Shown: positions 5,727 through 6,393 of the stretch, one piece after another
Layout of the letters: each line of letters begins with the position of its first letter
Position numbering within the stretch: position 1 is the stretch's first letter
Assembly (NCBI RefSeq): GCF_988243305.1
Contig: NZ_OZ547136.1
DNA: 64,000 nucleotides
Direction: 5' to 3' (one strand)
The notes under the pieces: model-generated
Database searches by the model: none
What the model saw: only the letters and a program-made list of their open reading frames with translations
What the model was told of the DNA's origin: nothing
Made by a program: the position numbers and the translations under genes

Positions 5727-6086
5727 ATGCGCGTGTTTAAAACCAAATGGTTTGCAAGGGAAGCCAGGTCTCATGCAATAACAGATGAAGAGTTGTGCCG
5801 GGCCATTTTAGAAACGGAACAAGGTAAAGCTGATGCACTTGGCGGTGGCGTTTTTAAAAAGCGCCTTCACCAAAATCGTGAGCGTGCAATTATTCTGGCG
5901 AAAGGGGGAAGCAATTGGTTTTACACGTTTTTATATGCAAAACAGGATATGTCGAACATCAGTAGTCAGGAACTGGCTGGGTTTCGTGAAATTGCAAAGC
6001 ATTATGCCTTCCTGACGAAAGCCCAACTAACAGCAATGATTAACACTAAAGAACTGACAGAGATCTGCTATGACTGCAAAAACTAA
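5727..6086 (+). CDS. Type II toxin, RelE/ParE superfamily (HigB-2-like)
   Basis: 119 aa; core LGGGVFKKRL...RAIILAKGGSNWFYTFLYAKQDMSNIS resembles HigB-2-type toxins; overlaps the downstream HTH gene by 17 nt in toxin-first order. Confidence 0.7.
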   Translation: MRVFKTKWFAREARSHAITDEELCRAILETEQGKADALGGGVFKKRLHQNRERAIILAKGGSNWFYTFLYAKQDMSNISSQELAGFREIAKHYAFLTKAQLTAMINTKELTEICYDCKN

Positions 6087-6393
6087 ATTTAAAAGTCCTG
6101 CATTTGAGGCTATTCACAGCGCAGCGGCTGGATTGTCCAGCGTCAATGCTATTTCTGCTGAAACGATGCGTACTTTTGACAAAGCCTGCCTGACCAGCGT
6201 GCAAGACTTACAACCTGTTGAGATAAAAGCACTGCGGGAAAAATTAAAAGTGAGTCAGCCCGTCTTCGCTCACTATCTCAATACCAGCGTTTCAACTGTA
6301 CAAAAATGGGAAAGTGGCGCTAAACGCCCCAATGGCATTTCATTAAAACTGCTCAGCATTGTGCAAAAACACGGGCTGGAGGTGCTGCTGTAA
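6070..6393 (+). CDS. HTH (XRE-family) antitoxin, HigA-2-like
   Basis: 107 aa; C-terminal HTH LREKLKVSQPVFAHYLNTSVSTVQKWESGAKRP typical of antitoxins paired with HigB-2-like toxins; translationally coupled to the upstream toxin. Confidence 0.7.
   Translation: MTAKTKFKSPAFEAIHSAAAGLSSVNAISAETMRTFDKACLTSVQDLQPVEIKALREKLKVSQPVFAHYLNTSVSTVQKWESGAKRPNGISLKLLSIVQKHGLEVLL

Follow-up and report, generated by a model that had tools for sequence, protein, structure and literature searches.

A toxin-first HigB2/ToxP-type toxin-antitoxin module between nepI and yicN in Escherichia coli

Introduction

The PF06296 ("RelE") family of toxins has two well-studied members, HigB-2 of Vibrio cholerae and ToxP of the Coxiella burnetii plasmid QpH1. 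HigB-2 was assigned to the family by a 2025 review (PMC11980606). Its active site comprises R51, R64, Y82 and K84 (PMC5416850), with K49 as a further residue (PMC10098735), and the operator of its antitoxin HigA2 has been footprinted as a single 19-bp inverted repeat, TGTACGC-N5-GCGTACA, extending from after the -35 element across the -10 element (PMC11006873). ToxP is toxic and inhibits translation; it is bound by AntitoxP, which rescues from its toxicity, and the promoter is bound by AntitoxP alone or together with ToxP (PMC10098735). The substitution K79E abolishes the toxicity of ToxP in E. coli (PMC10098735). The present analysis concerns a pair of overlapping genes located between nepI and yicN in a 64,000-nucleotide stretch of DNA (NCBI RefSeq assembly GCF_988243305.1, contig NZ_OZ547136.1), hereafter the window, to which coordinates refer unless a locus label precedes them. 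The pair very probably constitutes a functional, autoregulated type II toxin-antitoxin (TA) operon of the HigBA2/ToxP-AntitoxP family.

Such a pair is already known. Automated annotation names one HigB-2/HigA-2 in E. coli isolates (PMC10304320), and public databases, RefSeq among them, describe the two proteins as a RelE/ParE toxin of type II and a helix-turn-helix (HTH) partner in thousands of genomes. The identification is correct but ordinary, and this is not a new kind of system. The relE-1/yiaG-1 system of adherent-invasive E. coli occupies a different locus, yiiD-fdhE.

Gene Organization

Both reading frames start with ATG (coordinates in Table 1) and are flanked by nepI (4315-5505) and yicN (6509-6961), each on the minus strand. 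Between Escherichia lineages the dN/dS ratio is 0.12-0.17 for the toxin gene and 0.07-0.10 for the antitoxin gene, at a dS of 0.15-0.31 (dS is saturated toward Citrobacter), and both genes are under purifying selection. Together with the Pfam match of the toxin (E 6.9e-42) and the presence of the exact protein sequences of the pair on more than 500 public contigs (502 for the window allele), this range of 0.07-0.17 identifies both as genuine genes and not chance open reading frames. The 17 nt that the two frames share, which are also shared in Citrobacter koseri, Dickeya and Morganella and become 29 nt in Verminephrobacter, probably give translational coupling. RefSeq/PGAP starts the toxin at GTG 5733 (117 aa). 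The ATG at 5727 appears the better start, since orthologous toxins all begin with MR(V/I)FKT and AGGA is found 10 nt before this ATG.

In DH5alpha, a K-12 derivative, an anchored comparison finds a 42-bp filler in place of an 841-bp segment comprising the promoter region, the two genes and a 41-bp tail. The GC content of this segment is 0.435 (toxin gene 0.431, antitoxin gene 0.454), against 0.529 in nepI and 0.523 in yicN. The original prediction, made from the letters of the window, had given the gene coordinates, the protein lengths, the overlap and the motifs GGGVFKKRL and FYTFLYAKQDM exactly, and its suggestions that GC content falls below that of the flanks and that K-12 lacks the pair at this locus are borne out by these comparisons.

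The Toxin

The match to PF06296 runs from residue 1 to residue 113 and covers model positions 1-120 of 120. ToxP matches the same model over its full length (E 7.9e-49), while V. cholerae HigB-2 (the sequence used is identical to PDB chain 5JA9_C) matches positions 8-96 of 120 with an E-value of 3.3e-8. A tblastn search of plasmids with the toxin led to the ToxP gene of QpH1 (CBUA0028), which is followed by that of AntitoxP (CBUA0027). Toxin and ToxP are 31% identical over residues 1-114 (E 8e-19). No NCBIfam model matches the toxin, and PHROGs yields a weak match only (E 1e-4).

The toxin is predicted to adopt the RelE/BECR fold. An AlphaFold2 model built from 24 homologs (pLDDT 86, pTM 0.78) has the topology β-α-α-β4 followed by a helix-helix-strand tail. 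When compared with the PDB by Foldseek, the top ten matches of this model are all HigB2 (probability 1.0, TM 0.5-0.6, 19-20% identity), followed by Mycobacterium tuberculosis HigB1, Cami1, YoeB and YafQ. The HigB2 residues K49, R51, R64, Y82 and K84 correspond to K44, R46, R53, Y70 and K72 of the toxin, in an alignment that is weak toward HigB2 and significant toward ToxP; K79 of ToxP aligns with K72. Across the toxin family K44 and K72 are invariant, K45, R46 and R53 are found in at least 90% of members, and position 70 is Tyr or Phe. The C-terminal element at residues 98-115 (nt 6018-6071) is also present in Coxiella ToxP, as a feature of core PF06296 toxins, and the Glu-Ile-Cys (E-I-C) at residues 112-114 is invariant in the enterobacterial clade. 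A gyrase poison of the ParE type was considered and rejected: the Pfam scan gives no match of the toxin to PF05016 (ParE-type), RelE-type catalytic residues are present, and in the Foldseek comparison ParE structures come far down the list (probability 0.25-0.5).

The Antitoxin

The antitoxin is 55% identical to AntitoxP over nearly its whole length (E 4e-37). Pfam places an HTH_3 domain at residues 52-96, and residues 46-102 have HigA-2 as their best PDB match (E 8e-10). Conservation across the range from E. coli to Coxiella includes the first 45 residues. In a model of toxin and antitoxin fused through a linker, which gives per-residue confidence and no interface and is not counted as evidence of binding, residues 10-40 of the antitoxin are modeled confidently as two helices (pLDDT 88-95). 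These helices would fit a putative neutralizing segment at the N-terminus, like that of HigA2.

The C-terminal HTH also gives weak matches to MqsA (Pfam E 1.2e-5; NCBIfam 41 bits against a cutoff of 61.8), confined to the HTH part (model positions 52-123 of 131), and a match to NadS that is likewise restricted to the HTH and lies under the curated cutoff. An assignment to MqsRA was rejected because the antitoxin matches only the HTH of MqsA and the toxin belongs to PF06296 and not to MqsR. The original prediction had described a toxin-first, HigB-2/HigA-2-like type II pair. Profile searches of both proteins (PF06296 for the toxin, HTH_3 for the antitoxin) agree with it, as do HigB2 as the best structural match of the toxin and HigA-2 as the best solved relative of the antitoxin.

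Promoter and Candidate Operator

An inverted repeat, TATTGCAC-TTG-GTGATATA, lies 25 nt upstream of the toxin start codon and overlaps the extended -10 element TGaTATACT. The upstream regions of three Escherichia lineages, C. koseri, C. amalonaticus, 'K.' indica, Dickeya and Morganella were aligned, and the palindrome is the sole strongly conserved block in this alignment. It is perfect in several species, its consensus is TATAGCAC-N3-GTGCTATA (or 7-N5-7), and the core CAC..GTG.TA.A.T is invariant. Both position and core are kept in Escherichia, Citrobacter, Dickeya and Morganella, even amid unrelated upstream DNA. The -10 hexamer reads TATACT, TATAGT or TACATT among orthologs, and no good -35 element accompanies the putative promoter. 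The candidate operator has the length of the HigA2 operator and the same placement over the -10 element. From the conserved palindrome over the -10 element and the geometry of the HigA2 operator, we infer that the operon is repressed by its own product through this site.

Proposed Mechanism

By homology with the characterized relatives, the module would work as follows. The extended -10 promoter would drive a single transcript, from which the toxin would be translated first and the antitoxin would be coupled to it through the overlap. Free toxin, with its RelE fold, would be toxic to the cell; it would most likely enter the ribosomal A site and cut the translated mRNA by means of K44, R46, R53, Y70 and K72. 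The antitoxin most likely neutralizes the toxin by its conserved N-terminal segment, and an antitoxin dimer most likely binds the 19-bp repeat through the C-terminal XRE-type HTH and represses the operon.

Several observations weigh against this interpretation. In the literature search, no experimental work on the E. coli pair or on the nepI-yicN locus came to light. Neither a direct PDB search with the toxin (phmmer) nor one with the profile of the 24-sequence family gives a relevant match, hhalign assigns a probability of 4.8% to the comparison of the toxin family with HigB-2, and a purpose-built HMM scores HigB2 at 3.2 bits. As direct sequence comparison is thus not significant, the link to HigB-2 is drawn through common Pfam membership, the fold search and ToxP, and the equivalences to HigB2 residues follow from a weak alignment joined to a stronger one with ToxP. 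The equivalent of Tyr82 (Y70) is replaced by Phe in about half of the toxin family, and the C-terminal helix-helix-strand extension is absent from HigB2 and has no solved structure. A consensus scan for sigma-70 promoters and terminators in 5450-6600 found no site. Finally, the activity of the toxin is dispensable, given the frameshifted and start-mutated alleles of some strains. In O157:H7 (DEC4E, locus L002, 3180-3539) the start ATG has become ATA, with GTG left at codon 3, and the substitutions G61V and S79N are present. Other E. coli toxin alleles are frameshifted after residue 60 or 73 or have an altered N-terminus, and the antitoxin stays intact. Constraint combined with sporadic loss of the toxin is the usual picture for chromosomal TA modules.

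Distribution and Decay

The whole segment is found in 1716 of the 5426 complete E. coli genomes, always as a single chromosomal copy at the nepI-yicN locus. Carriers include O157:H7 and ST131 strains, and the 42-bp allele occurs in K-12, B, O111 and CFT073-like strains. GTDB species representatives were scanned with YicN and the yicN-nepI loci then scored. The pair occupies this locus in E69-type Escherichia, Escherichia sp. E1V33, C. amalonaticus and 'K.' indica, and also in C. koseri; in most of the other species scanned the spacer is short and empty. Citrobacter, Dickeya, Morganella and Verminephrobacter retain both the pair and its overlap. Among plasmids and phages there is no true copy of the enterobacterial clade, as one "phage" and one E. 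coli "plasmid" match proved to be mislabeled chromosomal records. The C. koseri toxin is nearer to that of Dickeya (dN 0.10), which stands in another context, than to that of E. coli (dN 0.17), which indicates that the cassette has moved between lineages.

Traces of decay are seen at the same locus. Citrobacter sp. MGH106 (locus L033, 4128-4235) retains, in a spacer that is "empty" but for this, a 36-aa toxin remnant that corresponds to residues 70-105 with 56% identity (E 2e-12). This remnant directly documents decay of the module between nepI and yicN. The K-12 filler matches toxin codons 29-34 at 17 of 19 nt, a score reached by 2 of 500 shuffled sequences. This match may be the scar of a deletion in K-12, although it is suggestive only.

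The spacer holds other genes in related species. Several Citrobacter species (L021-L023, about 4230-4920; L032 and L036, about 4658-5309) carry another pair there, also toxin-first but facing the other way; its toxin, of 113 aa, belongs to Gp49/PF05973 (E 8e-21), and the partner is an XRE-type HTH protein of 99 aa. In the C. youngae/portucalensis group and in Leclercia (L029, L031, L037, L032, L036, L041) the spacer contains a 175-aa gene (MNQATQQSAIIWP...) that no NCBIfam model matches; an N-terminal fragment of this gene stands beside the toxin remnant of MGH106. The yicN-nepI spacer resembles a hot spot for small TA cassettes of the RelE superfamily.

Neighborhood

The inverse-autotransporter adhesin gene iatC (air/EaeX in some records) is very large; it starts at about 4112 on the minus strand and runs past the start of the window. 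Its start lies 1.6 kb from that of the toxin gene, in keeping with the proximity noted in the original prediction. It occupies the side of nepI (junction 4113-4314) where K-12 and O157:H7 have yicS-nlpA-yicL. The iatC-nepI junction is found in 749 of the 5426 complete genomes, and in at least 746 of these the TA pair is present as well (at least 80% of the joint query covered); the sampled rows contain no class with iatC only. About 970 TA-positive genomes, including O157:H7 and ST131, lack iatC and have yicS-nlpA-yicL instead. Linkage over 1.6 kb explains this nesting.

Orthologous pairs in other genera are set in different surroundings. Those of Verminephrobacter (L010, L011) adjoin SIR2_2 or HATPase_c_3/NB-ARC genes, and those of Morganella (L008, L009) adjoin a phage-type integrase with AlpA and a gene of the metallo-beta-lactamase fold with a faint anti-Pycsar match. 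Unlike in E. coli, these contexts resemble mobile or defense islands, which is suggestive only.

Origin and Role: Alternative Explanations

Was the pair gained by the window strain or lost by K-12? The original prediction had described it as inserted between nepI and yicN; the position holds, but the direction is disfavored by the same-locus pair in Citrobacter and cryptic Escherichia, the toxin remnant and the 17/19 match of the K-12 filler. A recent horizontal insertion into an ancestrally empty spacer would fit the GC content, some 9 points under that of the flanks, the patchy distribution, the exchange witnessed by the C. koseri and Dickeya toxins, and the readiness of the Citrobacter spacer to take other cassettes (the Gp49-family toxin with its HTH antitoxin; the 175-aa gene). 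It is nevertheless rather unlikely. The borders of the segment show no direct repeats, terminal inverted repeats, integrase or transposase; C. koseri, C. amalonaticus, 'K.' indica, Escherichia sp. E1V33 and the E69-type species share the locus, the orientation, the 17-nt overlap and an alignable upstream region; and, beside the remnant in MGH106 and the K-12 filler, the dS among Escherichia is of the order expected of resident genes. Insertion is no more likely than old residence with repeated loss, and the same-locus pairs of C. koseri, C. amalonaticus and cryptic Escherichia, taken with the Citrobacter toxin remnant, make it more likely that K-12 lost the pair than that the window strain gained it. 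With moderate confidence, we read the module as long established in a variable spacer, subject to repeated loss and some lateral exchange, and not a recent insertion. Could the window copy itself be an inactive remnant, a domesticated regulator next to a dead toxin? The frameshifted and N-terminally altered E. coli alleles and the lost ATG of O157:H7 illustrate such a fate, but no family-invariant residue is missing from the full-length window allele, the exact sequence of this allele recurs on 502 contigs, and the dN/dS of the toxin is low (0.12-0.17), so that this explanation is very improbable indeed. The module behaves as an old and dispensable resident of nepI-yicN: roughly one E. coli strain in three retains it, and in the others it is lost or decayed.

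What such a TA operon might do for its host, if anything, invites further proposals, among them the two roles suggested in the original prediction, phage defense and stabilization of neighboring accessory DNA. Its main role might be abortive-infection phage defense, in which infection would deplete the labile antitoxin or stop host transcription and so free the mRNase, which would abort the growth of the phage; the present analysis yields no evidence in support of this role. TA modules of the RelE/ParE superfamily are increasingly tied to defense (PMC11980606), the Verminephrobacter and Morganella contexts and the patchy E. coli distribution, typical of defense genes, point the same way, and yet the idea is improbable as a main role: in PADLOC-DB 2.0 the toxin is unmatched and the antitoxin has only weak generic HTH matches (RmrA, HTH_VI; E 6e-6 or worse), the E. 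coli and Citrobacter neighbors are housekeeping genes (nepI, yicN, adeQ, adeD) and form no defense island, and true phage or enterobacterial plasmid copies are missing. Alternatively, the module could be a local addiction element that guards the iatC/air island against deletions removing both. The near-complete nesting of iatC within TA-positive genomes would be expected in that case, and the family members HigBA2 and ToxP/AntitoxP stabilize plasmids. The TA pair is, however, kept without the island in about 970 genomes and in Citrobacter, and over a distance of 1.6 kb linkage within a shared haplotype suffices for the nesting; addiction is quite improbable, and a stabilizing role for the iatC island is possible but unsupported. 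It would be a long shot to combine these ideas and regard nepI-yicN as a conserved hot spot of Escherichia and Citrobacter that swaps PF06296 cassettes with opposite-facing Gp49/PF05973 ones, where the PF06296 module is kept because it is functional there, in abortive-infection defense or in protection of the iatC/air island, and where the C-terminal E-I-C element adds a function absent in HigB2.

Sequence Features

Table 1. Features of the nepI-yicN spacer in the window
Feature	Position	Strand	Basis or remark
Variable segment, 42-bp filler in K-12	5594..6434	none	DH5alpha comparison; GC 0.435
Candidate operator, 19-bp inverted repeat	5684..5702	none	Inverted-repeat scan; cross-genus conservation; binding by the antitoxin inferred
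Putative extended -10 element, TGaTATACT	5696..5704	+	Sequence reading; -10 kept in orthologs
Shine-Dalgarno AGGA, 10 nt before toxin ATG	5713..5716	+	Sequence; ACAGGA kept in orthologs
Toxin gene, 119 aa, PF06296 (HigB2/ToxP family), predicted RelE/BECR fold	5727..6086	+	Predicted active site K44, R46, R53, Y70, K72
Antitoxin gene, 107 aa; putative neutralizing N-terminus (about 1-45) and XRE-type HTH (46-102)	6070..6393	+	
Overlap of the two frames, 17 nt	6070..6086	+	Translational coupling probable
Toxin-gene stretch, codons 29-34, 17/19 nt match to K-12 filler	5811..5829	+	Local alignment; suggestive only
REP-like palindromic element	6435..6505	none	Right border of the variable segment; K-12 has the same; outside the module

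A few elements around the module complete the picture. The REP-like element between the cassette and yicN has imperfect arms (6452-6467 and 6485-6500) and is not found in C. koseri. The Rfam scan returned nothing beyond a match to naRNA4 (REP-derived) at 6400-6465, which lies below threshold (28.6 bits; gathering score 59.5). On the other side, just beyond the left border of the TA segment, the block GTGTGACGCATTTAACGTTTTTGCAACTTT at 5556-5582 upstream of nepI is near-invariant between E. coli and C. koseri amid divergent surroundings, and is probably a regulatory site of nepI. A perfect 6-bp hairpin, TTCGAG-GCTG-CTCGAA (5601-5620), stands at the left end of the cassette, between the promoters of the divergently transcribed nepI and toxin genes; it is not kept in C. 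koseri.

Implications

An apparently intact module with a predicted mRNase of the HigB2/ToxP type, missing from K-12, is present in O157:H7, in ST131 and in roughly one third of E. coli. The inverted repeat at 5684-5702 marks its likely operator, K-12 has probably lost the module, and the content of the spacer also varies among Citrobacter. The pair could serve as a convenient enterobacterial model for core PF06296 toxins and their C-terminal extension. For a family that already has its two well-studied members, the significance of a further one goes little beyond bookkeeping.

Comparison with Known Systems

The nearest experimentally characterized homolog of the window pair is ToxP/AntitoxP. 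The two share the toxin-first order, overlapping genes and a full-length PF06296 toxin, and the likeness of the antitoxins extends to the N-terminal segment. They differ in setting, as ToxP/AntitoxP is plasmid-borne and maintains its plasmid, whereas the window pair is found on the chromosome with housekeeping genes on either side. They also differ in the β2-β3 loop of the toxin, which in ToxP is long and Lys/Gly-rich as in HigB2 (PILGKGKRGGL) and in the window toxin has 6 residues (LHQNRE).

HigB-2/HigA-2 of V. cholerae (VCA0468/0469; PDB 5JAA, 5JA9, 8A0X) resembles the window pair in its PF06296 toxin, the toxin-first order, a single 19-bp inverted repeat over the -10 element (the operator of HigA2, the candidate operator in the window) and the conserved RelE-like active-site residues, and provides both the best structural match of the toxin and the best solved relative of the antitoxin HTH. 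Differently from the window toxin, HigB-2 has no C-terminal helix-strand ending in the invariant E-I-C, and at 19-20% identity the direct sequence match between the two is not significant. The candidate operator of the window (TATAGCA-N5-TGCTATA) is unrelated in sequence to the HigA2 operator (TGTACGC-N5-GCGTACA), and HigBA-2 resides in a superintegron, the window pair in a core-genome spacer.

More distant are RelBE and HigBA (YgjN/YgjM) of E. coli K-12 and HigBA of Rts1, which have in common with the window pair the fold of the RelE/ParE superfamily and the ribosome-dependent mRNA cleavage that is predicted for it but belong to other Pfam families, PF05016, PF09907 and PF05015 (PMC11980606). 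The relBE operon is antitoxin-first, unlike the window pair, and the antitoxin architectures of RelBE and HigBA also differ from that found here. MqsR/MqsA shares the toxin-first order and a weak similarity of the antitoxin HTH; the window antitoxin, however, does not match the N-terminal part of MqsA, and the window toxin falls outside the MqsR family.

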